Assembly (NCBI GenBank): GCA_023265135.1
Contig: JAHFUM010000004.1
Location: 83,036 to 92,411, forward strand
From: Nitrosarchaeum sp.
GTDB taxonomy: Archaea; Thermoproteota; Nitrososphaeria; Nitrososphaerales; Nitrosopumilaceae
Length of the DNA: 9,376 bases
Direction of reading: 5' to 3'
Shown: piece after piece, positions 798-9,376 of the stretch
Layout: the number at the start of each line of letters is the position of its first letter
Numbering within the stretch: position 1 is the first letter of the stretch
Position numbers and translations under genes: made by a program
The notes under the pieces: model-generated
The model's database searches: none
Told to the model about the DNA's origin: nothing
Seen by the model: the letters and a program-made list of their open reading frames with translations, nothing else

Positions 798-810
798 TTT
801 AAACACTTTT
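798..810 (-). promoter_or_regulatory. TATA-like TTTAAA with upstream A-rich BRE-like stretch for the GNAT gene
   Basis: On the minus strand, AAAAGTG-TTTAAA reads from 810 down to 798. The first T of TTTAAA (803) is 29 nt from the A of the ATG (774), the same geometry as the + strand cassettes but without their extended sequence. Confidence 0.45.
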
Positions 811-840
811 CCTAAATCCTTAAGTTAATACAAAAATTAG
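809..840 (+). promoter_or_regulatory. Promoter cassette copy 1 (BRE/TATA-like, CTTAAG 819-824)
   Basis: ttcctaaatccttaagttaatacaaaaattag lies directly before ATG 841. CTTAAG is 22 nt from ATG 841 and 28 nt from the in-frame ATG 847. Confidence 0.6.
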
Positions 841-1254
841 ATGGTTATGGGGAATGCAGGTCTTGGAATAACTGTAGTATTCTTTTGGGCTTTGGCCACT
901 TTTTTATTTATTACGGGTGAATATGGATATTGGTTCATAGTTGGGATTATAGGATTAGTATCATCATTTATTTACGCTGGTCAAAGTTCTCTCAAAAAAG
1001 AAGAAAAAAAATACATTTTAAGTTCACTTCCACAATACTCTAGTTCTGCATCTCCTGTATCTGAATATGATTTACAAAATAATTTTACAAATTTTTCATG
1101 GCGCGAAATGGAAGAACTGACAGGAAAATTATTTGAGAAAAAAGGGTATTCAGTTGAAGTCACTAAATCTACAGGAGATTTTGGGTTGATGTTTATGCCA
1201 AAAAAGCAATGCGATTCCAATTACAGAAAATACGATAGGAATTACAAGTTCTGA
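841..1254 (+). CDS. 2-TM membrane protein with the N-terminal part of an Mrr-like (Mrr_cat, PD-(D/E)xK) restriction endonuclease domain; probably truncated or frameshifted
   Basis: Two hydrophobic helices (GLGITVVFFWALATFLFITG, YWFIVGIIGLVSSFIYAG) are followed by FSWREMEELTGKLFEKKGYSVEVTKSTGDFG, which matches the start of Mrr_cat (..FE.lv..ll...GY.vevt..sgDgG). The expected G-(I/V)-D continuation (VDVYAKK) appears only in the -1 frame from nt 1185. The ORF stops about 23 codons later and lacks the rest of the domain. The true start may be ATG 847. Confidence 0.5.
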   Translation: MVMGNAGLGITVVFFWALATFLFITGEYGYWFIVGIIGLVSSFIYAGQSSLKKEEKKYILSSLPQYSSSASPVSEYDLQNNFTNFSWREMEELTGKLFEKKGYSVEVTKSTGDFGLMFMPKKQCDSNYRKYDRNYKF

Positions 1255-1332
1255 TTGATATGCCACACTAACTTTGTATGATCTTATTTTCTTAAGCTTT
1301 ACGTCAACACTGCATGTCTTCCCTCATAATTC

Positions 1333-1380
1333 GGGGGGATACCATTTTTATTCTCTGTCAATAAAAAATAGAATGCCCCC
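1333..1380. terminator. Possible bidirectional termination region between convergent genes
   Basis: A G6 run (1333-1338) and a C5 run (1376-1380) flank an inner ATTCT/AGAAT inverted repeat. There is a T5 tract on + (1345-1349) and a T6 tract on - (complement of A6 at 1363-1368). Archaeal termination typically uses oligo-T tracts. Confidence 0.3.
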
Positions 1381-1398
1381 AAAATAGGCAGTAAAACA

Positions 1399-1413
1399 TG
1401 ACGCTTGTCGTAA
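1399..1413 (+). repeat. Left copy of a 15-nt direct repeat, tgacgcttGtcgtaa
   Basis: 14 of 15 nt are identical to 2477-2491, in the same orientation. Each copy is followed by a (G/T)TTAAG-containing cassette-like sequence. Confidence 0.7.
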
Positions 1414-1445
1414 AAGTTAAGAAAACAATAGATTAGAAAAATTAA
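1414..1445 (+). promoter_or_regulatory. Orphan, degenerate promoter-cassette copy (GTTAAG 1416-1421) with no downstream + strand ORF
   Basis: aaagttaagaaaacaatagattagaaaaatt aligns with small indels to the cassette core (cTTAAGttcatACAAaatTTAGAAAAtc). The position 29 nt downstream has no start codon and runs antisense into the 3' end of the minus-strand protease gene. Confidence 0.4.
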
Positions 1446-1458
1446 ATTTTACAGTAAA

Positions 1459-2319
1459 TCAATAAAGTTTGTTAATACCTGCAATGTCGCCAGTATTCAG
1501 ATCACGTTTCTTAGTTTCACCATTAGACGCATATGCATACATGGTTTCCTCAGTGCAGCTATTACTTGGATGTCCCATTCCTGCTGCATGGCCTATTTCA
1601 TGAGTTGCAATATTTTGCAAGTCCATCTTGCCTGATTCCCCGCTATTGCTCCAGCTAAAGTCTTTAGTATCGTAAATTTGATCCCATTCTACAATTTGTC
1701 TCTGTGATGGGGAACCTGAAGTACTCCAAACCCAAGTGGCAGCAATTACACCATTGCTTGCAATATCGCCAAATGCAACCTCGTTAACACCATTCACGGA
1801 ATTACCAATAGAACTAGCATCGACTACAATATTACTGTCATATGATCCAAAGATAGCATTTCCAGCAGGATCTGCAATTTCCCATTGACTAGCTGCAGTT
1901 TGTAAAATATCAGTGGCACCAGTTACAGGTATACCATCTGTTGAAACTCCCCAATTTTCTTCGGATTTCCATTTAGCGCCATTTGAAATGTAAGAGTAAC
2001 ATGTTGTGCCTCCTCCACTTTTAGCTCCATGTCCAGAAACATCAGAAGGTTTTGCAAGTTCTTTATCTGAAAATACATACAAAGTTCCTTGCAGGATTTG
2101 ACCATCATGGACTTTGTAGCCTAAATCATATACTCCATCTCCAATTTTTTTGGCATTTTCTGGAATGGAAACTACTGTCATTTCTTTTGCTTTAGAGTTT
2201 GCATTTTCATTTGGGGCAGCCATAGCCTGAGTTACAACTGTACCAATAAACAAAACTCCAATTATTGCAAAGACGATTATCTTATTGTTCACTATGACAA
2301 GAATATCCAATTTTGCCAT
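1459..2319 (-). CDS. Secreted zinc metalloprotease, metzincin clan, matrixin-like (MEROPS M10-like)
   Basis: N-terminal signal peptide (IIVFAIIGVLFIGTVVTQAMA/AP). Extended zinc motif HEIGHAAGMGH (HExxHxxGxxH) with the Met-turn TMYAY downstream. C-terminal DIAGINKLY resembles the D-D-I-x-G-I-Q-x-L-Y end of matrixin catalytic domains. Confidence 0.85.
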   Translation of the reverse strand: MAKLDILVIVNNKIIVFAIIGVLFIGTVVTQAMAAPNENANSKAKEMTVVSIPENAKKIGDGVYDLGYKVHDGQILQGTLYVFSDKELAKPSDVSGHGAKSGGGTTCYSYISNGAKWKSEENWGVSTDGIPVTGATDILQTAASQWEIADPAGNAIFGSYDSNIVVDASSIGNSVNGVNEVAFGDIASNGVIAATWVWSTSGSPSQRQIVEWDQIYDTKDFSWSNSGESGKMDLQNIATHEIGHAAGMGHPSNSCTEETMYAYASNGETKKRDLNTGDIAGINKLY

Positions 2320-2476
2320 AAAAGTATTGCTGTTTTGCTATTAGTGTGTCACAATTATTTTATGACAGAATAGCGAGTCTAGTTTGGGTTATATTTGTCA
2401 CATTTGCAGATTATATCTCAAGTCATCTTTTATCTAGATTATATGATTTGAATTGGAATGAATTACGTTTAGAAAC

Positions 2477-2491
2477 TGACGCTTATCGTAA
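2477..2491 (+). repeat. Right copy of the 15-nt direct repeat, tgacgcttAtcgtaa
   Basis: Pairs with 1399-1413. It is followed by cggcttttaagcaaaatat, a cassette-like remnant lacking the TTCATA segment. Confidence 0.7.
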
Positions 2492-2512
2492 CGGCTTTTA
2501 AGCAAAATATGA

Positions 2513-2549
2513 TCAAGTTAATTTATCAGTTATGAAATTATGATCTTAC
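2513..2549 (+). promoter_or_regulatory. Probable TATA-like promoter of the PH/SHOCT gene
   Basis: tcaagttaatttatc contains the A/T hexamer ATTTAT at 2521-2526, 29 nt before TTG 2550, which is the same leaderless geometry. It has only weak resemblance to the cassette (caagttaat vs ttaagttaat). Confidence 0.35.
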
Positions 2550-3107
2550 TTGTTTGGAAAGAAAAAAGATGAGGAACGTGAATATTCTTTTGACTTGTCA
2601 GAATTTTCTGAAAAAGAACAAGATGAAATAAAACGAGTAAAAACCCTCTTAGAAGTATCTGAAATTATCAAAACTGTAGCACGTCAAAGTAGAATTATGC
2701 CTGGAGGTTCTATTATTACTCCAAACATAATCTTTGCAACAAATAAAAGACTAATTCTAAGAAACCCCAATACTCTGGGATTACGAGCTGGAGTAGAATC
2801 AATCCCATATAGCCAAATAAATAAAGTTCATCTTGACAAAGGAGCATTTACATCTGAATTAGTCATGGATGTTGGCCAGTATCAATCAGGGGATAACAAA
2901 CAAACAATTTCAGCCATTCCAAAAAAGAAAGCAGCAGAAATTTTATCAATAATTAATGAACATGTGCGTAATTCTCAGGATCAAAGTAATGTAACAGTAC
3001 AAGAAAAAGTAGAAGATGATCCTCTAGTTATGTTGAAAAAGAGACTAGTCAAAGGAGAAATATCTGTTGAAGAATATGCAAAATTAAAATCAACACTTGA
3101 AAGTTGA
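2550..3107 (+). CDS. Bacterial-type PH-like (bPH) domain protein with C-terminal SHOCT domain
   Basis: The core ITPNIIFATNKRLILRNPNTLGLRAGVESIPYSQINKVHLDKGAFTSELVM fits the bPH pattern (TnkRli.....es.iPy..I..v....g.....l.i). The C-terminal DPLVMLKKRLVKGEISVEEYAKLKSTL fits the SHOCT pattern. It uses a TTG start and has no signal peptide. Confidence 0.75.
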   Translation: MFGKKKDEEREYSFDLSEFSEKEQDEIKRVKTLLEVSEIIKTVARQSRIMPGGSIITPNIIFATNKRLILRNPNTLGLRAGVESIPYSQINKVHLDKGAFTSELVMDVGQYQSGDNKQTISAIPKKKAAEILSIINEHVRNSQDQSNVTVQEKVEDDPLVMLKKRLVKGEISVEEYAKLKSTLES

Positions 3108-3141
3108 AAAGTCTTAAGTGGATACAAAAGTTAAAAGAATA
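3108..3141 (+). promoter_or_regulatory. Promoter cassette copy (CTTAAG 3113-3118), partly diverged
   Basis: aaagtcttaagtggatacaaaagttaaaagaata. CTTAAG is exactly 29 nt before the in-frame GTG 3142. Confidence 0.55.
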
Positions 3142-4413
3142 GTGAAAATTCAGATTTTGTTGATACTGGTTATTCTAATCAGTGTAATCTCAATCAATAA
3201 TGCATTTGCAGATAGAAATTGCAAAACGGATTATGTGTGTGTCCTTCCTGGAGATTTTTTAAAATATGCGTCACATCCAACGGTGGGTTATAGTTTCGAA
3301 GATGGTTCAGGATGCTGCATAGGTAATCTTACTTATGCATTTGAGGATTTTATAGACATCAATCACATTAAAGTAAATTTAAAATTCGATAGTGAAGATG
3401 GATCACATCATTATTCCCAAAAAAGAGTAATGGATATTTCAACTGGCCTATTAGGATCTCCAGAAAAGATAACTGAACCGATCTTTGAACACATGTTATT
3501 TGGGAATGAAATACCACATATTCTTTATTCCATTAGCCCAACCTTGTTAACATATGACAAAACGTTAGCAAGAAACGAAGGAGTGGTGGATATTACAATC
3601 GAGGAAGGGAATTGGGGTGCAGATAGAAAAACAATCTTTCTAAAAAGCCCTGGCCAAACCAATACAAATGGTTTTGATGAACCTGCTCTTTTTTCGGGAT
3701 ATGAAATTAATGTTTTCTTTGATAAAGAAACACACGTGATAGTTTATTCAGCTAAAATAGATCATCAAACTTCTGCCACATATTACGATAGTCATTATGC
3801 TTTAGTCGAGACCAATGTTTTTGGGTCTAACAATAATAGTGGGGAATCATCAAAAACAGCAGTTCCACAATTAAGCACCAATAAAATCACAATTCCATCA
3901 TCTGGTAAATCTGAGGAAATAATTCTATACGGTAATGTTGCTAATCATAAAAGAGGCACTCCTTTGGCTATCACTTTAATTAATCCTGATGATACTGTGC
4001 AAACTTTTGCTGCAGTTCTAACTGATAATGGTGATTATCGAACTGCCTTCTCAATAAATGCAGATTCACCATCTGGAGTTTATAAAATTCAATTGTTTCA
4101 CAACGGAGCCAATGTTGGAACAGTTTCATTTATTGCTTCTAAAAATATTCCTGATTGGATTAAAAACAATGCAAAGTGGTGGTCAGGTGGACAAATAAAA
4201 GATTCAGAATTTCTTAAAGGAATTGAATATTTGGTTCAAAAAAATATTATTCATATTAATAAAAATACTCAAGAATCAGACAATCAGAGCAAAAATATTC
4301 CTGATTGGATTAAAAACAATGCAAAGTGGTGGTCTGAAGGGCTAATCACCGAAGATGATTTTCTCAAAGGAATTGAATTTCTGGTACACCAAGGAATAAT
4401 CATAGTAAATTAG
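3142..4413 (+). CDS. Secreted protein of unknown function with a central beta-rich region and two C-terminal W-rich 40-aa modules
   Basis: The ORF is open from GTG 3118, but that codon overlaps the CTTAAG core. GTG 3142 lies at the canonical 29-nt spacing and gives a clean signal peptide, (M)KIQILLILVILISVISINNAFA/DRN. The C-terminus carries KNIPDWIKNNAKWWS..(D/E)FLKGIE(Y/F)LV...II twice. Confidence 0.75.
   Translation: MKIQILLILVILISVISINNAFADRNCKTDYVCVLPGDFLKYASHPTVGYSFEDGSGCCIGNLTYAFEDFIDINHIKVNLKFDSEDGSHHYSQKRVMDISTGLLGSPEKITEPIFEHMLFGNEIPHILYSISPTLLTYDKTLARNEGVVDITIEEGNWGADRKTIFLKSPGQTNTNGFDEPALFSGYEINVFFDKETHVIVYSAKIDHQTSATYYDSHYALVETNVFGSNNNSGESSKTAVPQLSTNKITIPSSGKSEEIILYGNVANHKRGTPLAITLINPDDTVQTFAAVLTDNGDYRTAFSINADSPSGVYKIQLFHNGANVGTVSFIASKNIPDWIKNNAKWWSGGQIKDSEFLKGIEYLVQKNIIHINKNTQESDNQSKNIPDWIKNNAKWWSEGLITEDDFLKGIEFLVHQGIIIVN
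4141..4413 (+). repeat. Intragenic 150-bp-period duplication encoding the W-rich module
   Basis: 4141-4184 and 4291-4334 are identical over 44 nt. The rest of the two modules is clearly related but much more diverged. Confidence 0.85.
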
Positions 4414-4425
4414 ATTTCAAACTAT

Positions 4426-4464
4426 TTCCTAAAACCTTAAGTTCATACAATATTTAGAAAACAT
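4426..4464 (+). promoter_or_regulatory. Promoter cassette copy (CTTAAG 4436-4441)
   Basis: ttcctaaaaccttaagttcatacaatatttagaaaacat. CTTAAG is 29 nt before ATG 4465. Confidence 0.65.
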
Positions 4465-4662
4465 ATGAAAATCTGGATCAAAGTAATAATTGCAGGCATC
4501 ATAATTTTCTTTATAGGTGTCTTTTACATAACTGCCGCAGGCGGTGCAATGTTTATGGCCGGTTTTCCAGGTTTAATAATTTCATTAATCGGAGGTGTAG
4601 TGTTTGTGGTTGGTGTTTTAGCTGGATTACAACGCGGTTACAGACGTATGATGGGAGAATAA
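4465..4662 (+). CDS. Small (65 aa) two-helix membrane protein, unknown function
   Basis: Two hydrophobic, Gly-rich spans (IKVIIAGIIIFFIGVFYITAAGG and FPGLIISLIGGVVFVVGVLAGL) with a basic tail RGYRRMMGE. It has its own cassette at canonical spacing. Confidence 0.6.
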   Translation: MKIWIKVIIAGIIIFFIGVFYITAAGGAMFMAGFPGLIISLIGGVVFVVGVLAGLQRGYRRMMGE

Positions 4663-4675
4663 CTCTAAAATTTGT

Positions 4676-4722
4676 TCTCCTAAAAACTTAAGTTCATACA
4701 AAATTAAGAGAATTTCAGATTA
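4676..4722 (+). promoter_or_regulatory. Promoter cassette copy (CTTAAG 4687-4692), long-spacer variant
   Basis: tctcctaaaaacttaagttcatacaaaattaagagaatttcagatta. CTTAAG is 36 nt before ATG 4723, and no alternative in-frame start exists because of a TAA at 4705-4707. Confidence 0.6.
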
Positions 4723-5106
4723 ATGAAAACTATCATAATTATCATATTAGCCATCATAGTCAGTCTAGTGATTATAGGAGGAGGATTAGGAGCCTTTATT
4801 TCAAATGTTGGGGAAGGTACAGAAAAAATAAAACAAAATGAGCAAGTACAAGAAATAACAAGTAAAATTTCATCTAAACTCAATCCAGATAAAGTTGTAA
4901 AGTCTGAAAGCGCTGTCATTCAAGATAAGCCTGTAGAGACTCAAGCAAGTCAAAATAACTGTGATTCATCATATCCTGATGTTTGTATTGCTCCATATCC
5001 ACCAGACTTGGATTGTGGGGAAATTTCGTACAAAAACTTTAGAGTATTATCACCAGACCCACACAGATTTGATGGAGATCATGATGGAATAGGTTGTGAA
5101 AAATAA
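4723..5106 (+). CDS. Membrane-anchored protein with C-terminal Excalibur-type calcium-binding domain
   Basis: N-terminal anchor (TIIIIILAIIVSLVIIGGGLGAFI). The C-terminal CDSSYPDVCIAPYPPDLDCGEISYKNFRVLSPDPHRFDGDHDGIGCE contains the Excalibur signature DxDxDGxxCE and the commonly associated PPDLDCGDI..F.V...DPH..D block. Confidence 0.75.
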   Translation: MKTIIIIILAIIVSLVIIGGGLGAFISNVGEGTEKIKQNEQVQEITSKISSKLNPDKVVKSESAVIQDKPVETQASQNNCDSSYPDVCIAPYPPDLDCGEISYKNFRVLSPDPHRFDGDHDGIGCEK

Positions 5107-5112
5107 CTCTAT

Positions 5113-5150
5113 TTCTAAATCCTTAAGTTTTTAAAAAATTTAGAAAATCA
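5113..5150 (+). promoter_or_regulatory. Promoter cassette copy (CTTAAG 5122-5127) with perfect 8-bp dyad arms
   Basis: ttctaaatccttaagtttttaaaaaatttagaaaatca. TTCTAAAT (5113-5120) and ATTTAGAA (5138-5145) are exact reverse complements. CTTAAG is 29 nt before TTG 5151. Confidence 0.65.
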
Positions 5151-5801
5151 TTGAAAAAAATTCTGTTTGTACCTTTGGGGTTGTTTTTGGTTGGCGTAGT
5201 TGCATCCTTGTATCTTAGTGGTATCTTTGAATTTAACCAAGAAAATTTAAACAAATCAATTCAAATTTCAAATCCATTACAAATGTATAAAATTGATAGC
5301 ACGTGTGAACTCGCATTTGCGATTCAAACTAATCATGAAACTGGATATAATGGAGCATTACACCTAGATAAAACTCGATTTGAAAATGATCTAAAGGAGA
5401 TAAGCCAAGAAAAACAGAAGATGTTAGAAGAACATGATAGTCTTTGGGGTTATACAGCAGAAGGCAAACAAGCAATTGCAAATATTTGGGAAAAATTATA
5501 TGAATTACAAATTGATAATATAATGACTTACAATTCAATACACCCAAAATTAAGAGATTCTGTTAAATCAGTCGTAGAAAACATGTTTCAAGCACAACCA
5601 AAATCAACAGAAGAGCAAATCACTGCGATGAATGTTATATTTTTAATTCAATCTGAACCGTACAAAGAGGATCCTGAATGTGGTAAAAAATTTCATGAAC
5701 GTTTTGGAAATGAAACATTCAAAATGCTGAAACAAATTTTTGGCGAAGATAGAGCAACGATTGAATATGATAAAATAAAGAAAATTATCTACGGTAATTG
5801 A
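5151..5801 (+). CDS. N-terminally anchored, predominantly helical protein of unknown function
   Basis: 216-aa ORF. The TTG start at canonical cassette spacing gives the signal/anchor (M)KKILFVPLGLFLVGVVASLYLSG, and the first in-frame ATG would delete it. I recognise no family. Confidence 0.65.
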   Translation: MKKILFVPLGLFLVGVVASLYLSGIFEFNQENLNKSIQISNPLQMYKIDSTCELAFAIQTNHETGYNGALHLDKTRFENDLKEISQEKQKMLEEHDSLWGYTAEGKQAIANIWEKLYELQIDNIMTYNSIHPKLRDSVKSVVENMFQAQPKSTEEQITAMNVIFLIQSEPYKEDPECGKKFHERFGNETFKMLKQIFGEDRATIEYDKIKKIIYGN

Positions 5802-5895
5802 TTTTTAATCTATTTGTTTTCTAAAAATAAGGAGTTTCGATGGAGAGATATGTCTCATACATCACTTTAGTGCTAAATTAAAAATAAAGACTTTA

Positions 5896-5934
5896 TTCCT
5901 AAATCCTTAAGTTCATACAAAATTCAACAAACCC
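5896..5934 (+). promoter_or_regulatory. Promoter cassette copy (CTTAAG 5906-5911)
   Basis: ttcctaaatccttaagttcatacaaaattcaacaaaccc. CTTAAG is 29 nt before ATG 5935. The TTTAGAAAA right arm is not conserved in this copy. Confidence 0.65.
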
Positions 5935-6375
5935 ATGAGTTCTAAACAGACTGCAAATAAGGCTCTACAAATTTTAGTAAAATCAAATAAAGGATTTCAC
6001 CTTGTCTCAAAAAAGGAACATGGAGTATTGCTTGTTGCATTTGCACGGTATAATAAAGTGCTCTATGGACAAGCCTATGATTTAATCAAATGCAAGAAAA
6101 AAATTAATTTTGAAAATGAAAAAGAAGTAGTTGACAATTTACGCCATATCACAATATACGAAATAAAATCCACGAACAGAAAAGACATGTCTAAGGATTT
6201 CAAGAATTATTTTTTTGATTTAACTACAGCAGAACTCCTAGTTGCACAAAACCTTGGAAAGCAGTTCAAATTTGCTTTTGTAAATACAACCACAAAACAA
6301 TTCATCGAATTATCCTTAGAAGAAGTATTTGCAAAATCTAAAAAACTATACCCTAAAATGGCAATTAGATTCTAA
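5935..6375 (+). CDS. Small cytoplasmic protein with a possible PD-(D/E)xK nuclease-like fold (DUF3883/Mrr-like pattern)
   Basis: 146 aa with no hydrophobic N-terminus. The pattern AYDLI ... ITIYEIKST ... FFDLTTAELLVAQNLGKQFKFAFVN resembles GyDi...iEVKst...f.lt.nE...a...g..y.ly.V of restriction-endonuclease-like domains. The family call is tentative. Confidence 0.6.
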   Translation: MSSKQTANKALQILVKSNKGFHLVSKKEHGVLLVAFARYNKVLYGQAYDLIKCKKKINFENEKEVVDNLRHITIYEIKSTNRKDMSKDFKNYFFDLTTAELLVAQNLGKQFKFAFVNTTTKQFIELSLEEVFAKSKKLYPKMAIRF

Positions 6376-6383
6376 ATTCTTTT

Positions 6384-6421
6384 TGTGTAAATCCTTAAGT
6401 TTTTAGAATATTAAACAAACT
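6384..6421 (+). promoter_or_regulatory. Promoter cassette copy (CTTAAG 6394-6399)
   Basis: tgtgtaaatccttaagtttttagaatattaaacaaact. CTTAAG is 28 nt before ATG 6422. A distal perfect inverted repeat, ATTCTAAA (6369-6376, including the upstream stop codon) and TTTAGAAT (6402-6409), is also present. Confidence 0.6.
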
Positions 6422-7450
6422 ATGCGTAAAGCACCTGCAATAGGAATAACCATCCTGTTAATAATTCTAATTTTTGGAGTACTGCTTGCATATTCGTATA
6501 CTCAGCTTTCAGTCACTCTTGATGATGTAAGATTTCATAGTATAGATTGGGCATCACTTTCATGGTCTACTTTGTTGAAGTTAGGTCTTAGTACATTAAC
6601 AGGAAATTGGTTGGGGGCAGCATTTGAGTTAATTGATGGGGTGAATCTAAATTTCATATTTGGATTAACAAACAATGGTCTTCTTCCAGTCTATATCCCT
6701 GATCTATCGTATGATATTTTGATAAATGACGTAAACATGGGAAGAGGCCACAGTGATGTCAATATTACAATCAATCCAGGACAAACACAACAAATCACAA
6801 CATTTCAAAATATCAAAAAAGATAGTTTGAGTCCAGCAGTATATTCAATTGTAAGTACAAAAGGCATATTGGATATTAAAGTAAAAGGAACAGCATACTT
6901 TCAATTCTTTGGTCTAAGTGTTCCAATTCCATTTGAATCATCAAAACAAATTTCAATTTACGATGAAATCAAAAATAAATTAAATTCTCAAATTCAAAAG
7001 AATAAACAGGAGCAAAAAAATTCTGTAATTTCTACTGTTGGAAAGTCACTCTCTAGTGCAATAAATTCAATCGCAAATGAATTGTTTGGATCTAAAGACT
7101 TGAATCTTTCATTGAAAGGACAAACAATAGTAGATTCAACTTTCAAAATAAGTCCAGGAACATATCGCTCTGTCTATTTTACATTAAGTTGTACTGCAAA
7201 TGTTCAAGGCGGTTTTATTGCAAGTGCTGTACTTGGTGATGATATTGTTGTCTATATTCTTGATGAGAGTGCATTCAACCAGTATGAAAGCGGACAAAAT
7301 ACATCTACATATTACAACAGCAACAAGGTAGAATCTGGAGTATTTGATGTAACTTTATCTCCAGGAAAATATCATATCGTAATGTCAAATACCTATTCAA
7401 CTTTTTCCACTAAAACAGTGCAATTACAGGCAGCTACTTCATGTATATGA
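6422..7450 (+). CDS. Membrane-anchored LEA_2/WHy-like (LEA14/NDR1-HIN1 type) domain protein with a C-terminal beta-sandwich-like domain
   Basis: N-terminal anchor (AIGITILLIILIFGVLLAY). FIFGLTNNGLLPVYIPDLSYDILINDVNMGRGHSDVNITINPGQTQQITT fits the LEA_2 pattern (l.v.NpN.f.l.i..l.ydl.lng..lg.g......i.a.g...v). The C-terminal 110 aa end in PGKYHIVMSNTYSTFSTKTVQL, reminiscent of the GOLD/emp24 G.Y.fcf.N..s....k.v motif (weak). Confidence 0.7.
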   Translation: MRKAPAIGITILLIILIFGVLLAYSYTQLSVTLDDVRFHSIDWASLSWSTLLKLGLSTLTGNWLGAAFELIDGVNLNFIFGLTNNGLLPVYIPDLSYDILINDVNMGRGHSDVNITINPGQTQQITTFQNIKKDSLSPAVYSIVSTKGILDIKVKGTAYFQFFGLSVPIPFESSKQISIYDEIKNKLNSQIQKNKQEQKNSVISTVGKSLSSAINSIANELFGSKDLNLSLKGQTIVDSTFKISPGTYRSVYFTLSCTANVQGGFIASAVLGDDIVVYILDESAFNQYESGQNTSTYYNSNKVESGVFDVTLSPGKYHIVMSNTYSTFSTKTVQLQAATSCI

Positions 7451-7526
7451 TTTGGAAAAAAACACAGAACAAACTAGAAATAAAATATTAGAATTTGCTG
7501 GGATTAAAAGCATATTCTAAATTCTA

Positions 7527-7565
7527 TTCCTAAATACTTAAGTTCATAGAATATTTAGAAAATCA
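7527..7565 (+). promoter_or_regulatory. Promoter cassette copy (CTTAAG 7537-7542)
   Basis: ttcctaaatacttaagttcatagaatatttagaaaatca. The arms TCCTAAATA (7528-7536) and TATTTAGAA (7552-7560) are complementary at 8 of 9 positions. CTTAAG is 29 nt before TTG 7566. Confidence 0.65.
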
Positions 7566-9194
7566 TTGAAGATTGTTTTAATTTTATTTTCAATATCCGT
7601 GTTTATTATTCCATTAAGTGTTTATGGGGACATTCCAGATATAGCATACAAAGATCATGCGTATTCAATGAAGACGTATTACTATGATTTAAAAAATGAT
7701 TTAAAAAATGGGATAACAACTGCGGAAAAGGCATTATCTGCTGCATCTTTTGAAAACTCTGAGGCTAAAAAAAAGATAGATGGAGCTTGGGGAATTAGAT
7801 CTATGGCTTGGGTATCTAATGGGAAAATTGAATCTAATTTGGGACAAACAGAAGAGTCTCTAAGTAACAAACACTATAAAAATTCGTACGATAAACTATT
7901 GCAAATTGACAAGAATGCATATTCACTAAAAGATAATCTTTATGCAACACTAAAGGAAATAAAAAATGCTCAAGGGTTAGAAAAAAAATATCAGGAAAGC
8001 AAAAAAACATGCATATTATTTTGGTGTTATGGAGACACAGATACATACAGTAAGGTTGACTCGAACATTCAAGATTTAGAATCAAAATTAAAAATAATTG
8101 AGAGCAAACTAGTACAAATAAAATCTGAGAAAAACAATGTAATTCAATCGATTCAAAAATATGAAATTACACAAAAAGATCTTCAACTTAAAAAATCAGA
8201 GACTCTAAGAAAACAAGAGAAATATAAGGCAGACCAGGAATTACGTGATCAAAAATACAAAGATGAACTTGCGCGTAAAAGATTAGAAGAACAAAATCAA
8301 AAAGAAAATCAGCGTCTTTTAGATCAGAACAATATTGAAATTGAAAAACAAGATATAATCAAAGAAGCTGAGTGGAGTCCTTTAATTCGAGGATTGATCA
8401 AAGGCCAGTTGAATTATTACGTGAATGAACTTCCTAGTTATTCAAGCTCAGATGTTAAGTCAAGTGTAGAATCATTGGCAAGTTTTATGGATGGCAAAAC
8501 ACCCCAAGGTGTAAGACTTAATCGTGTGTATAGTAGCGATTCAGCAGATCTTACATTTGATTGGGCAAAAGATTATCAAGAAGGAGCCATAGGAAGACAG
8601 ATTGGAAAATATTTGCTCATAGGCCTTGGAACAAATGGTTGTGATGGAAGTTGGAAACCATTTAACGCCAATACAGTTTACAAGATAATGTGGCACGAAA
8701 TGGGACATGCAATGGGATTTGCTCATTCCAAAGACAGCACAAACATTATGTACGAACTTGGAACTGGTAATGATTTTAGCATTGATTATGATAAGACCAT
8801 TAATCTAAAAGATGGATATGCAATATCTATTCCATTCTGTGATGGTGCAGGACAATATTCTTACGAAATTGAAAGCGATAGTAAATACACAGGATTTTCT
8901 GTCTATGCTGTACCGCCAACTATCCATTTTCAGGACATTGTAGATGGACATCCTGATAAAATATATCCTTGTGATGGCGGTAAAGGTTTTACACGTTTTT
9001 CATCTACTTGTTCAGTTGAAGATGGGGCGTATCTCTATATCGAGAATCCGTTAGATACTATTGTAACTTCAATGAATATTCATGTAAAAATTTATGATTT
9101 AACTGATGAAAGTCCAAAGAATATGGAATGGGATTCATCATATCAATACTTCCCATCGGAACATCTTGATTATGTCAGAAATCTATTTCGATAA
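7566..9194 (+). CDS. Secreted multidomain metzincin: signal peptide, helical N-domain, K/E/Q-rich coiled coil, matrixin-like zinc protease domain, C-terminal beta-rich domain
   Basis: The TTG start gives the signal peptide (M)KIVLILFSISVFIIPLSVYG/D. Residues around 170-260 are heptad-like and charged (KLKIIESKLVQIKSEKNN...RKRLEEQNQKENQRLLDQ). The zinc motif HEMGHAMGFAH (HExxHxxGxxH) is followed by the Met-turn NIMY. Confidence 0.8.
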   Translation: MKIVLILFSISVFIIPLSVYGDIPDIAYKDHAYSMKTYYYDLKNDLKNGITTAEKALSAASFENSEAKKKIDGAWGIRSMAWVSNGKIESNLGQTEESLSNKHYKNSYDKLLQIDKNAYSLKDNLYATLKEIKNAQGLEKKYQESKKTCILFWCYGDTDTYSKVDSNIQDLESKLKIIESKLVQIKSEKNNVIQSIQKYEITQKDLQLKKSETLRKQEKYKADQELRDQKYKDELARKRLEEQNQKENQRLLDQNNIEIEKQDIIKEAEWSPLIRGLIKGQLNYYVNELPSYSSSDVKSSVESLASFMDGKTPQGVRLNRVYSSDSADLTFDWAKDYQEGAIGRQIGKYLLIGLGTNGCDGSWKPFNANTVYKIMWHEMGHAMGFAHSKDSTNIMYELGTGNDFSIDYDKTINLKDGYAISIPFCDGAGQYSYEIESDSKYTGFSVYAVPPTIHFQDIVDGHPDKIYPCDGGKGFTRFSSTCSVEDGAYLYIENPLDTIVTSMNIHVKIYDLTDESPKNMEWDSSYQYFPSEHLDYVRNLFR

Positions 9195-9207
9195 AATATA
9201 CAATATC

Positions 9208-9376
9208 TATTCTATTCATAAATAATATAATAAAAAATATGATATTCTATTCATAAATAATATAATAAAAAATATGATATTCTATTCATAAATAATATAA
9301 TAAAAAATATGATATTCTATTCATAAATAATATAATAAAAAATATGATATTCTATTCATAAATAATATAATAAAAA
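9208..9376. repeat. Perfect 35-bp tandem repeat, 4 full copies plus 29 nt, truncated by the window end
   Basis: The unit tattctattcataaataatataataaaaaatatga occurs at 9208, 9243, 9278, 9313 and 9348 (partial). All copies are identical and contiguous with no spacers. A degenerate partial copy lies at 9195-9207. Confidence 0.95.

Follow-up and report, generated by a model that had tools for sequence, protein, structure and literature searches.

Several described systems resemble in part the sequence reported here. Promoter classes served by alternative TFB/TBP paralogues include those of the Halobacterium TFB/TBP pairs and of Sulfolobus TFB3, and the Vibrio cholerae superintegron repeats provide a further comparable case among cassette arrays. 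In the amo genes, TATA/BRE elements lie 23–24 nt before the start codons, leaderless transcripts have been suggested, and conserved bases specific to individual lineages, flanking the basal elements, have been pointed out as candidate regulatory sites (Bartossek et al. 2012, PMC3379541). Putative mobile promoters have been described in bacteria, mostly as pairs with at least 80% identity over at least 50 nt in the −150 to −50 region (Nijveen, Matus-Garcia and van Passel 2012, PMC3575422). Integron attC arrays, reported also from archaeal MAGs, hold short, unrelated accessory ORFs in co-oriented tandem (Ghaly et al. 2022, PMC9668308), while Correia, ERIC and REPIN repeats are short, dispersed and intergenic, have inverted ends and can supply promoters (cited in PMC3575422).

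The window analysed here, a 9,376-nt stretch of Nitrosarchaeum sp. DNA, carries copies of a CTTAAG-centred, promoter-like sequence of about 45 bases. Related ammonia-oxidising archaea have it in front of hundreds of accessory genes that are unrelated to one another. As in the amoA, amoC and amoX promoters, an A/T-rich element stands at a fixed distance (23–29 nt) before the start, an A-rich BRE position lies just upstream, Shine–Dalgarno motifs are lacking and each gene appears to have its own promoter; unlike them, the motif conserves about 40 contiguous positions across hundreds of non-homologous genes rather than among the orthologues of one gene, and its TATA slot holds the palindrome CTTAAG instead of a T/A-only hexamer (PMC3379541). 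With the putative mobile promoters it shares closely similar sequence upstream of unrelated genes within and between genomes and the lack of a tie to a known mobile element, but it resembles an archaeal 40-nt core promoter abutting the start, present in hundreds of copies and in arrays (PMC3575422). A gene subset sharing a distinctive core promoter in an archaeon with several TFB paralogues also recalls the TFB/TBP-paralogue classes, although the known ones differ by short BRE-proximal motifs and not by 40 conserved bases.

The motif reads tTtTcCTAAATCCTTAAGTTaATAcAAAATTTAGAAAATta, followed by the start codon; positive offsets below are counted from the C of CTTAAG, and −29 from the start codon. 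A sequence-only reading had placed eight copies before eight plus-strand genes, and the coordinates of all eight hexamers and starts were confirmed, all on the plus strand. Copy 1 (807–846; CTTAAG 819–824; 44.1 bits) precedes a predicted ATG at 847 (+28), has one extra A, and lacks the AAAATTA tail; the generic TTTAAA promoter of a divergent GNAT gene adjoins it back to back. Copy 2 (3106–3141; CTTAAG 3113–3118; GTG 3142, with an A before it) is only partial: it keeps CTTAAG and the 3′ half, with the 3′ end of a bPH/SHOCT gene in place of the 5′ half, and scores 9.7 bits against 35–49 bits for the seven strong copies. Two of the strong copies are 5 (5105–5150; CTTAAG 5122–5127; TTG 5151, with an A before it; 48.8 bits) and 6 (5894–5934; CTTAAG 5906–5911; ATG 5935; 46.3 bits). 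The motif extends beyond the roughly 40 nt proposed, several copies having an extra upstream box TTAGATTCTAAAYTCT at 4411–4422, 4663–4671, 6365–6380 and 7514–7525; these are copies 3 (4411–4464; CTTAAG 4436–4441; ATG 4465; 44.5 bits), 4 (4663–4722; CTTAAG 4687–4692; ATG 4723; 43.0 bits), 7 (6365–6421; CTTAAG 6394–6399; ATG 6422, +28; 34.7 bits) and 8 (7514–7565; CTTAAG 7537–7542; TTG 7566, with an A before it; 48.3 bits). In many cases the gene before the motif ends within this box, its stop codon included.

The distance from the C to the start is 29 nt in five of the eight copies (3113/3142, 4436/4465, 5122/5151, 5906/5935 and 7537/7566), 28 nt in two (6394/6422 and 819/847) and 36 nt in copy 4 (4687/4723), where a 7-nt insertion shifts the ATG to +36; were transcription still to begin at +28/29, the mRNA of the gene behind it would have a short leader. 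Read directly, the sequence before the eight starts holds no Shine–Dalgarno-like element. CTTAAG occurs nine times in the window, once at 1291 and otherwise always as part of the motif; a 33-nt consensus allowing up to three mismatches has four matches in the window versus none in 200 shuffles, and a repeat finder reports a single family of seven copies, 51 nt long and 65–86% identical.

The eight genes behind these copies, likewise on the plus strand, encode a membrane protein with a truncated Mrr_cat nuclease domain, of which only the first third is present (847–1254); a secreted protein with two C-terminal IPDWIKNNAKWW modules (3142–4413), whose TAG stop (4411–4413) falls in the upstream box of copy 3; a two-helix membrane protein of 65 aa (4465–4662); a membrane-anchored protein with an Excalibur-like C-terminus (4723–5106); a 216-aa protein with a signal or anchor, matching no Pfam family (5151–5801); a 146-aa protein without a signal, matching no Pfam and no PHROG family (5935–6375), whose TAA stop falls in the upstream box of copy 7; a membrane-anchored LEA_2 protein (6422–7450), conserved across Nitrosopumilaceae, with weaker or generic promoters at its orthologues; and a secreted matrixin-like (M10) metalloprotease (7566–9194). 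Seven of the eight proteins have the hydrophobic N-terminus attributed to them, and such segments are enriched among driven genes in the loci fetched for the motif (41 of 68, 60%, versus 148 of 669 neighbours, 22%; p=2e-10). The idea of one functional toolkit fails: the driven genes are heterogeneous, including nucleases, a toxin–antitoxin pair, RHH and zinc-ribbon mini-proteins and TPR proteins, and have no common pathway, which would be odd for a classical regulon.

In 215 motif-less genes from related Nitrosopumilaceae DNA, the most frequent position of TATA-like hexamers, relative to the start codon, is −29. The fixed spacing of 28–29 nt thus characterises the lineage at large rather than this cassette (see also PMC3379541). 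Since CTTAAG occupies exactly this ordinary TATA slot, the BRE/TATA, leaderless reading appears reasonable, and from this geometry we infer both promoter function and leaderless mRNAs; the C and G at the ends of the hexamer, foreign to generic TATA hexamers, speak against that reading. The conserved flanks do exceed generic promoter grammar, as had been proposed: generic promoters are unconserved at −23 to −1 and at −45 to −30 except for an A at −34, whereas the motif conserves C+12 and G+21.

The motif is not confined to this locus but dispersed over many genomes. In loci fetched because they contain it, a position weight matrix scan found 81 sites against one in the reversed-sequence null (324 kb), and at least 185 distinct sites reach 20 bits or more, with information confined to −12 to +28 and the upstream box present in only about 41% of copies, at a variable spacing of −15 to −32. 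A metagenome scan gave at least 120 stretches with the motif pattern. The extended form occurs almost only in Nitrosarchaeum-like genomes, and the strict pattern, almost restricted to Nitrosopumilaceae, has 0–13 matches per genome; together with the negative results that follow, this argues against a generic promoter of the lineage. No site of 15 bits or more was present in 42 kb of loci fetched via the LEA_2 gene, no CTTAAG in about 8 kb downstream of the array in assembly L002, and the motif was not found in viral contigs. Copies are intergenic and located in co-oriented arrays, with 40 of 42 multi-site loci co-oriented. Among the 185 sites, start codons lie at +29 in 75 cases, at +28 in 21 and at +30 in 20; ATG starts occur at +28/+29 and TTG starts only at +29 or later, 47 of 51 with an A before them, a pattern that fits a fixed purine start site. 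At 59 of the 185 strong sites, about a third, no clear ORF of at least 20 aa is present at +26 to +32; these include decayed cassettes, and others among them may drive something different.

Gene content between copies varies among close relatives, with junctions at the motif, as the sequence-only reading had anticipated. Strain variant L180 is 98% identical over the 146-aa cassette and the LEA_2 start and differs in its genes to the other side, homology stopping at the edges of the motif and giving way to unrelated sequence. The 3′ end of the Excalibur-like gene is 85% identical to L180 before homology ends at +29 of copy 5, the 216-aa cassette is absent there, and identity resumes about 18 nt before the CTTAAG of copy 6. 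Homology to L095 and L070 begins at the CTTAAG of copy 2. Overall, breakpoints fall in 51% of motif-bearing intergenic gaps versus 30% of those without the motif (p=0.002, odds ratio 2.4), a modest enrichment that could simply reflect flexible genes happening to carry the motif promoter.

Judging from these sequences, we consider it probable that the motif represents a leaderless promoter class dedicated to flexible genes and specific to this lineage, and that its copies also set the limits of cassette turnover and may mediate it. The observations concern conservation, position, distribution, gene content and strain-level junctions; from them we infer the transcription start, the factor, co-regulation and the recombination mechanism. 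The repeat would be a high-information core promoter specific to the lineage, comprising a T-rich stretch and a BRE-like CCTAAAT, a non-canonical TATA element CTTAAGTT filling the normal −29 slot, a conserved stretch ATAcAAAATTTAGAAAAT, made up of A and T only, where the strands have to separate, and a putative initiating purine at +28/+29, either the A of ATG or the A immediately 5′ of TTG/GTG. Transcription of each gene probably starts from the copy in front of it, and the predicted users are flexible accessory genes of Nitrosarchaeum-like ammonia oxidisers, mostly for secreted or membrane proteins but also for nucleases and tiny proteins. Because the same 40 bases recur before unrelated genes in different genomes, while ordinary promoters keep only the TATA, a dedicated trans-acting factor most likely maintains the conservation. 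Candidates are a TFB/TBP paralogue, of which there are many, or a regulator recognising three TYCTAAAY boxes, two direct upstream and one inverted at +16 to +24. In one MAG, two genes for TFB paralogues are located 2–4.5 kb or less from motif sites. Since all units begin with a shared sequence, motif copies also provide the junctions for gain, loss or replacement of promoter-plus-gene units, with homologous recombination as the probable mechanism.

It is unlikely that the motif is instead just the best form of the lineage's basal promoter, strong, constitutive and recognised by ordinary TBP, TFB and RNA polymerase with no dedicated factor, which genes needing high expression keep close to consensus. 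Its geometry is indeed that of generic promoters, including the A at the generic BRE position −34, the A/T-only melting region, as read from the sequence, would favour strong initiation, and weaker variants (TTTAAG, CTTAAT, CTTATG and N. koreense forms) grade into ordinary promoters. However, tRNA synthetases, glutamine synthetase and GTPases in the same loci lack the motif, the driven genes are accessory rather than an expected highly expressed core, and neither the hexamer nor C+12 and G+21 has a generic counterpart.

A recombination site of an integron-like system, at which a recombinase inserts or excises promoter-plus-gene cassettes, perhaps with crossover in the near-invariant CCTAAATCCTTAAGTT block, seems still less probable. 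As in attC arrays, a conserved repeat separates co-oriented, tightly packed, short unrelated ORFs of strain-variable content (PMC9668308); this content (toxin–antitoxin pair, nucleases, secreted proteins, tiny ORFs) is typical of cassettes, a crossover between −12 and +8 is compatible with all junctions at the motif edges, tyrosine integrases outnumber every other family next to the arrays (4 of 140 neighbours), and the consensus stops translation in all six frames. Yet the motif sits promoter-like at the gene 5′ end, integron cassettes being mostly promoterless, and lacks the defining attC fold: no single-strand hairpin was found, folding being no better than in shuffles (z 0.8 to −1.1), and its two arms do not covary. 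No IntI lies beside the array and no integrase in the window or its 21 kb of known flanks, the L103 array stands between core genes without one, mosaic variants within the motif argue against a single fixed crossover point, and single copies precede conserved genes such as LEA_2, decaying gradually across genera.

We give very little weight to a MITE-like miniature element with an outward promoter, spread by transposition in the manner of Correia or REPIN. The motif is dispersed, multi-copy and intergenic, with short inverted termini TTCCTAAAT...ATTTAGAAA, and there are solo copies without a gene (for example at L180 7978) and a tandemly amplified derivative at the window end (9208–9376). Unlike the Correia, ERIC and REPIN repeats (cited in PMC3575422), it always faces the same way at a constant distance from the start codon and has no hairpin or associated transposase; neither target-site duplications nor empty sites were seen, the element is only about 40 bp long, its upstream box varies in spacing, and its consensus is stable across genera without families of near-identical recent copies. 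That it is an RNA-level element transcribed from elsewhere, a conserved 5′ UTR or the 3′ end signal of the upstream gene, is scarcely credible: the preceding stop codon often lies within or just before the motif and the T-rich stretch before the BRE-like box could aid termination, but no Rfam family matches, folding and compensatory changes give no sign of structure, CTTAAG sits exactly at the generic TATA position, the upstream box, a possible alternative promoter, is missing from most copies, and the window copies, on direct reading, seldom hold a run of five or more Ts.

The derivative at 9196–9376 on the plus strand consists of at least 4.8 tandem repeats of a 35-nt unit, TATTCTATTCATAAATAATATAAT..., and reaches the end of the window. 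In alignment the unit corresponds to the motif's 5′ half, ATATAA standing where the motif has CTTAAG, and it is present in about two copies in L002.

The hexamer CTTAAG occurs nine times in the window (G+C content 32% over 9376 nt), and eight of these occurrences, at 819, 3113, 4436, 4687, 5122, 5906, 6394 and 7537, lie on the plus strand, each followed by the start codon that the sequence-only reading had assigned to it. The distances noted there also hold: 29 nt from the C of CTTAAG to the start in five copies and 28 nt in two (6394, and 819 with ATG 847), the copy at 4687 standing at 36 nt with a 7-nt insertion. A 33-nt consensus with up to three mismatches gives four matches in the window and none in 200 shuffles, and a repeat finder gathers seven copies of 51 nt into one group at 65–86% identity. 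The copy at 3113 is partial, consisting of CTTAAG and the 3′ half only, and scores 9.7 bits versus 35–49 bits for the others. Several copies carry an extra upstream box, TTAGATTCTAAAYTCT, within which the stop codon of the preceding gene often falls (TAG 4411-4413, TAA 6373-6375); at two other copies the stop codon stands immediately 5′ of the box (TAA 4660-4662, TAA 5104-5106). No Shine-Dalgarno-like sequence precedes the starts in the window, as had been noted.

The genes directly behind these copies, hereafter driven genes, encode a membrane protein whose Mrr nuclease domain is truncated, a secreted protein ending in two modules rich in tryptophan, a membrane protein of 65 aa, a protein of the Excalibur type, two proteins without known family, a LEA_2 protein and a matrixin-like protease; seven of the eight have a hydrophobic N-terminus, in agreement with the initial count. 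The first of them stops after the first third of the Mrr_cat nuclease domain, and the next 200 nt contain a 35-nt imperfect inverted repeat (1273-1307 / 1405-1439) and two terminator-like hairpins, with a weak reverse-strand likeness to the motif near 1262-1296; the region as a whole (841-1458) looks like an old rearrangement scar between convergent genes. The tryptophan-rich module of about 33 aa (IPxWIKNNAKWW..DxDFxxGIxxL; 4141-4238 and 4291-4388), also present in L004, L027, L039 and L052, occurs as C-terminal repeats in many secreted proteins of the group, including matrixin-like proteases; it matches no Pfam family and may serve in cell-surface anchoring or binding.

Judged from sequence, a dedicated promoter class would be the simplest account that fits all of these observations. 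The 29-nt spacing proved not to be specific to the cassette: in 45 motif-bearing loci from reference genomes, TATA-like hexamers of 215 crudely called genes without a nearby CTTAAG peak sharply at -29 over a flat background (32 matches, with 20 at -30 and 22 at -28). The 29-nt geometry is therefore the ordinary promoter-to-start distance of the lineage, of which the window offers two ordinary cases, the GNAT gene and the bPH/SHOCT gene. It agrees with the amo genes, where TATA/BRE elements lie 23–24 nt 5′ of the start codons and leaderless transcripts have been suggested (PMC3379541). CTTAAG, beginning at -28/-29 from the start codon, occupies the place of an archaeal TATA element relative to a predicted transcription start, and TAAA at -35 to -32 corresponds to an A-rich BRE. 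Apart from A enrichment at -34, ordinary promoters of the lineage have no base preference at -23 to -1 or -45 to -30, while in the motif conservation extends from -12 to +28, counted from the C of CTTAAG, and takes in positions left free in the search pattern (C-7, T+18, T+19, A+20, G+21 and the A run at +22 to +25). The proposal that the extended sequence goes beyond basic promoter grammar was thus borne out.

Mechanistically, CTTAAGTT would occupy the TATA slot and CCTAAAT the BRE slot, the conserved A/T-only region would lie over the melting zone, and initiation would take place at +28/29. Start codons 3′ of the sites are found at +29 in 75 cases, at +28 in 21 and at +30 in 20. ATG is used as a start at +28 or +29. 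TTG is used at +29 or beyond, with none at +28, and is preceded by A in 47 of 51 sites. This pattern fits initiation at a purine at +28/+29, in which case the mRNA would be leaderless at ATG starts and would have a single-A leader at TTG starts. TTG opens 56% of driven genes of at least 100 aa versus 28% of ordinary TATA-bearing genes, and TTG or GTG commonly stands directly at the predicted transcription start at many loci, in the window at 5151, 7566 and 3142. UUG mRNAs that are leaderless or have a one-base leader would be unusual and raise the question of their translation. In L095 (6046-6100) and L070 (6322-6376), the orthologue of window gene 3142 has CTG at +29 where the window has GTG; the signal-peptide frame is open through this CTG, which is either a non-canonical start or one recently lost.

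The sequence-only reading would have been refuted had the extended motif been the generic promoter of the lineage, and the distribution of the motif argues otherwise. A 40-bit pattern matching seven window copies was scanned against 185,579 species genomes and found 54 stretches, about 45 of them in Nitrosopumilaceae, the remainder being chance bacterial matches without downstream conservation. Genomes contain 0–3 matches, with 13 in one metagenome-assembled genome (MAG), CAYYXT01. Since matches are so sparse, and since 42 kb of loci fetched via the LEA_2 gene contain no site of at least 15 bits and about 8 kb 3′ of the array in L002, the contig continuing the window, contain no CTTAAG at all, the motif is not a generic lineage promoter. 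A metagenome scan added at least 120 stretches, and the relatives matched by the motif pattern and by the LEA_2 protein belong to Nitrosarchaeum, other Nitrosopumilaceae and Nitrosotenuis. These matches point to an AT-rich ammonia oxidiser of the Nitrosarchaeum type as the source of the window, whose proteins have exact counterparts in ENA metagenome assemblies. A position weight matrix at 8 bits or more gives 81 sites in 324 kb versus one in the reversed-sequence control; all loci together contain 185 distinct sites of at least 20 bits, it being noted that all statistics come from loci fetched for carrying the motif and from crude ORF calls. All sites share one strand in 40 of 42 metagenome loci with at least two sites, and in L103 seven sites are packed into 4.7 kb flanked by core genes. 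Only 2 of 185 sites are intragenic versus 53% of random positions, a comparison that is uninformative because the consensus has stop codons in all six frames; upstream ORFs commonly terminate within 36 nt of CTTAAG, some on the TAA of the motif itself.

The driven genes do not form the single toolkit that had been proposed. The 70 non-redundant driven proteins match 71 different Pfam families, most commonly pentapeptide repeats, zinc ribbons, matrixin, CAP, SHOCT, staphylococcal nuclease and HNH, with NERD, TPR, DUF4344 and more; a RelE-type toxin-antitoxin pair, an Mrr enzyme and small RHH, coiled-coil and zinc-ribbon proteins also occur. The functional coherence expected of regulon targets was not found among these 70 proteins. 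What did hold is the extracytoplasmic bias: a hydrophobic N-terminal segment is present in 41 of 68 driven proteins of at least 100 aa versus 148 of 669 others from the same loci (odds ratio 5.3, p = 2e-10), the sole feature common to the driven set. Foreign composition was rejected, as G+C is 33.4% in driven genes versus 33.9% in their neighbours and GC3 is only slightly lower. About one third of strong sites lack a clear ORF of at least 20 aa at +26 to +32; among them are genes with frameshifts, very short ORFs and solo copies. At L035 (6765-6830), L016 (near 71) and L091 (near 1084) a strong motif without a start codon is followed by GTTTGGTATCGGAGGTTCGAACACCTCC, which has a perfect 6-bp stem, and may drive a small non-coding RNA. 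At no fewer than nine loci, including L026 (1906-1971), L140 (3465-3530), L068, L080, L110 and L118, the motif directly precedes the coding sequence of a conserved, lysine-rich peptide of 22 aa, MSKTSNKAKKRTKARDNAKSKK; in L026, L140, L080, L068 and L110 this coding sequence adjoins a conserved 37-aa zinc-ribbon gene with a degenerate CTTATG form of the motif.

Bases that ordinary promoters do not need are nevertheless kept before unrelated genes in several genera, which suggests that something beyond the basal requirement reads them. Candidate readers are a TFB or TBP paralogue, or a regulator of the three TYCTAAAY boxes. An operator-like motif with three such boxes does stand upstream of many genes (185 distinct sites); an extra upstream box of the TCTAAA type is found in about 41% of sites at a variable distance (mode -21). 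A small RHH protein was rejected as universal regulator, its gene lying behind copies in only about 10 of about 170 loci. TFB (TFIIB) paralogue genes are found in L024 (3684-4628, minus strand) and L015 (1243-2157, plus strand), two related genes of MAG CAYYXT01, which has the most copies; lying 2–4.5 kb from motif sites, they are tentative candidates for a dedicated initiation factor.

The proposed promoter class is attached to a flexible gene pool rich in secreted and membrane proteins, and, as had been anticipated, gene content between cassettes (a motif copy plus its driven gene) differs among relatives while the motif stays. The clearest case is L180, a 46.7-kb contig that shares its sample with the contig continuing the window. 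Identity to window 5888-6447 (copy 6, a 146-aa gene, copy 7 and the LEA_2 start) reaches 98.2%, and the two are unrelated upstream of about -18 of copy 6. A second stretch of L180 matches the 3′ end of the Excalibur-type gene and copy 5 at 85% identity, and there homology stops at +29. Between these two anchors, with junctions at the motif edges, the window has one cassette with a 216-aa gene; in L180 the interval is filled by a zinc-ribbon gene, a solo motif, an AlbA_2 gene in inverted orientation and a cassette of 122 aa. At this junction both assemblies from the sample break. L007 and L026 are about 93% identical over 630 nt up to the motif and then continue with different genes, one MAG contains the RHH cassette in three or more places with differing neighbours, and the partial window copy at 3113 shares its 3′ half and gene with L095 and L070, its 5′ half being replaced by the 3′ end of a different gene. 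Among site pairs, 15 share gene and motif without the upstream flank, 8 show the reverse and 20 share both; 28 of 42 alignments covering the downstream gene begin at -12 to -5. The LEA_2 gene is kept across the family and its promoter is not: a 71%-identical orthologue retains CTTAAG at -29 with only 9.6 bits, and the N. koreense orthologue has an ordinary TTTTAA box next to neighbours with decayed forms such as ATTCTAAATTCTCTAAATGTTTAAGT. In the course of evolution one and the same gene can thus acquire or lose the motif.

Since all units begin with the same 5′ sequence, the motif copies are natural points of junction where a promoter together with its gene can be gained, lost or replaced, and they may be substrates of such exchange. 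A more far-reaching reading, which we consider improbable, would have the motif serve as promoter and exchange site alike in an archaeal gene-cassette system, whose units are captured, lost and reordered at the near-invariant CCTAAATCCTTAAGTT core. Exchange would then depend on a site-specific recombinase that has escaped recognition, or on recombination at short homology adapted to the motif, and Nitrosarchaeum-like ammonia oxidisers would then own an integron-like platform in which cassettes arrive expression-ready as leaderless mRNAs. A homology breakpoint falls in 35 of 68 intergenic gaps with the motif versus 86 of 282 without it (p = 0.002, odds ratio 2.4), an enrichment that is real but modest and for which the use of this promoter by flexible genes could suffice; the 8-fold excess relative to sequence coverage was discounted because breakpoints fall in intergenic DNA anyway. 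Variants within the motif are sometimes mosaic (L007, L081, L107), which is evidence against one fixed crossover point.

An integron-like site-specific system is possible but unlikely. Integrons, in archaea too, are known to form cassette arrays that have one repeat in common (PMC9668308), and the motif arrays resemble them in being co-oriented with unrelated cassette content. Integron cassettes, however, are mostly promoterless, whereas the repeat described here is itself promoter-like, so these cassettes are not. The arms CTAAAT and ATTTAG, 17 nt apart, do resemble an inverted repeat, but bases paired between them are no commoner than column frequencies predict (185 sites), and single-strand folding gives minimum free energies of -2.1 to -5.4 kcal/mol, not above shuffles in stability (z 0.77 to -1.1). 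Without covariation, fold or an Rfam match, a folded attC-type site and a structured RNA are both excluded. No IntI lies next to the array, and no integrase was found in the window or in 21 kb of known flanks (L002, L180). Generic Phage_integrase genes adjoin some other arrays: in L135 an integrase is directly followed by two co-oriented motif-driven genes, and in L070 and L095 an integrase-bearing element, whose own core genes lack the motif, lies 5′ of three motif-driven genes. Among 140 non-redundant neighbouring ORFs of multi-site loci, tyrosine integrase is the commonest family with four members, next to two TFB paralogues and many core genes, and no tRNA integration targets were found in L002, L103, L095 or L007. 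The lack of a hairpin and of an adjacent integrase, together with the mosaic variants and the gradual decay of the motif on conserved genes, makes such a system unlikely.

A MITE fits poorly. The motif does contain a 9-nt imperfect inverted repeat, and the junction alignments described above show neither target-site duplications nor clean empty sites. An RNA element fits poorly too; a known RNA family was rejected, since an Rfam search at E up to 1 gives only a chance miRNA match elsewhere in the window. Viral origin was likewise rejected, given zero matches of the strict pattern among IMG/VR viral contigs and the absence of the motif from the core genes of the L070 and L135 elements that bear an integrase, as was a reading as bacterial sigma-70 promoters or intrinsic terminators, whose counts do not exceed shuffle expectation.

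Ammonia-oxidising archaea are abundant, difficult to manipulate and rich in TFB paralogues, and to our knowledge almost nothing is known of their transcription control. With hundreds of accessory genes behind it, this putative 40-base promoter offers genetic tools a candidate that may be strong or regulated; it is also a bait for the factor reading it and a metagenome marker of a flexible, largely secreted gene pool. If its copies also mediate cassette exchange, archaea would have a new way of building and rearranging their repertoires of surface proteins and exoenzymes. Promoter reuse as such is an established idea, and the motif resembles putative mobile promoters in that similar upstream sequence precedes non-homologous genes within and between genomes; the published definition (at least 50 nt, at least 80% identity, within -150 to -50) does not cover it as written (PMC3575422). 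Geometry, promoter reuse and shared-repeat arrays are therefore familiar elements; the 40-base CTTAAG-box class, its Nitrosarchaeum-like distribution and its coincidence with cassette junctions are apparently undescribed, no account of them appearing in the literature searched, where PMC3379541 is the only Nitrosopumilus promoter or TSS study.

Several minor observations concern the surrounding DNA. The window ends in a perfect 35-nt tandem repeat (9196-9376, at least 4.8 copies, reaching the window end), whose unit can be aligned with the 5′ half of the motif, ATATAA standing where the motif has CTTAAG. Another assembly of the region has about two copies (L002 2885-2965), and the copy number is either variable or collapsed in assembly. 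Beyond the repeat lie a gene for a protein-primed DNA polymerase and other element-like genes; L002 3188-11144 also encodes a DUF4062/AAA protein and large ORFs without known family, and no Cas1, integrase or motif copy was found in it. This stretch may be a casposon-like or other self-replicating element. Outside the motif, CTTAAG is not depleted (126 observed versus 92.5 expected), so avoidance of the hexamer was rejected and a link to restriction-modification is unlikely. GAATTC occurs at about half of its fourth-order Markov expectation in about 1.0 Mb of Nitrosopumilaceae loci (328 observed versus 630 expected), other palindromes being near expectation in the same loci, and its scarcity may reflect avoidance of an EcoRI-type restriction site. 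Finally, L023 and L027, labelled Nanoarchaeota MAG H43-bin135_1, and L043 and L056, labelled Nitrososphaeraceae, carry the motif together with typical Nitrosopumilaceae secreted proteins; since L027 aligns to the window in the same way as the Hainich groundwater contig L162, this suggests that these contigs were placed in wrong genome bins.
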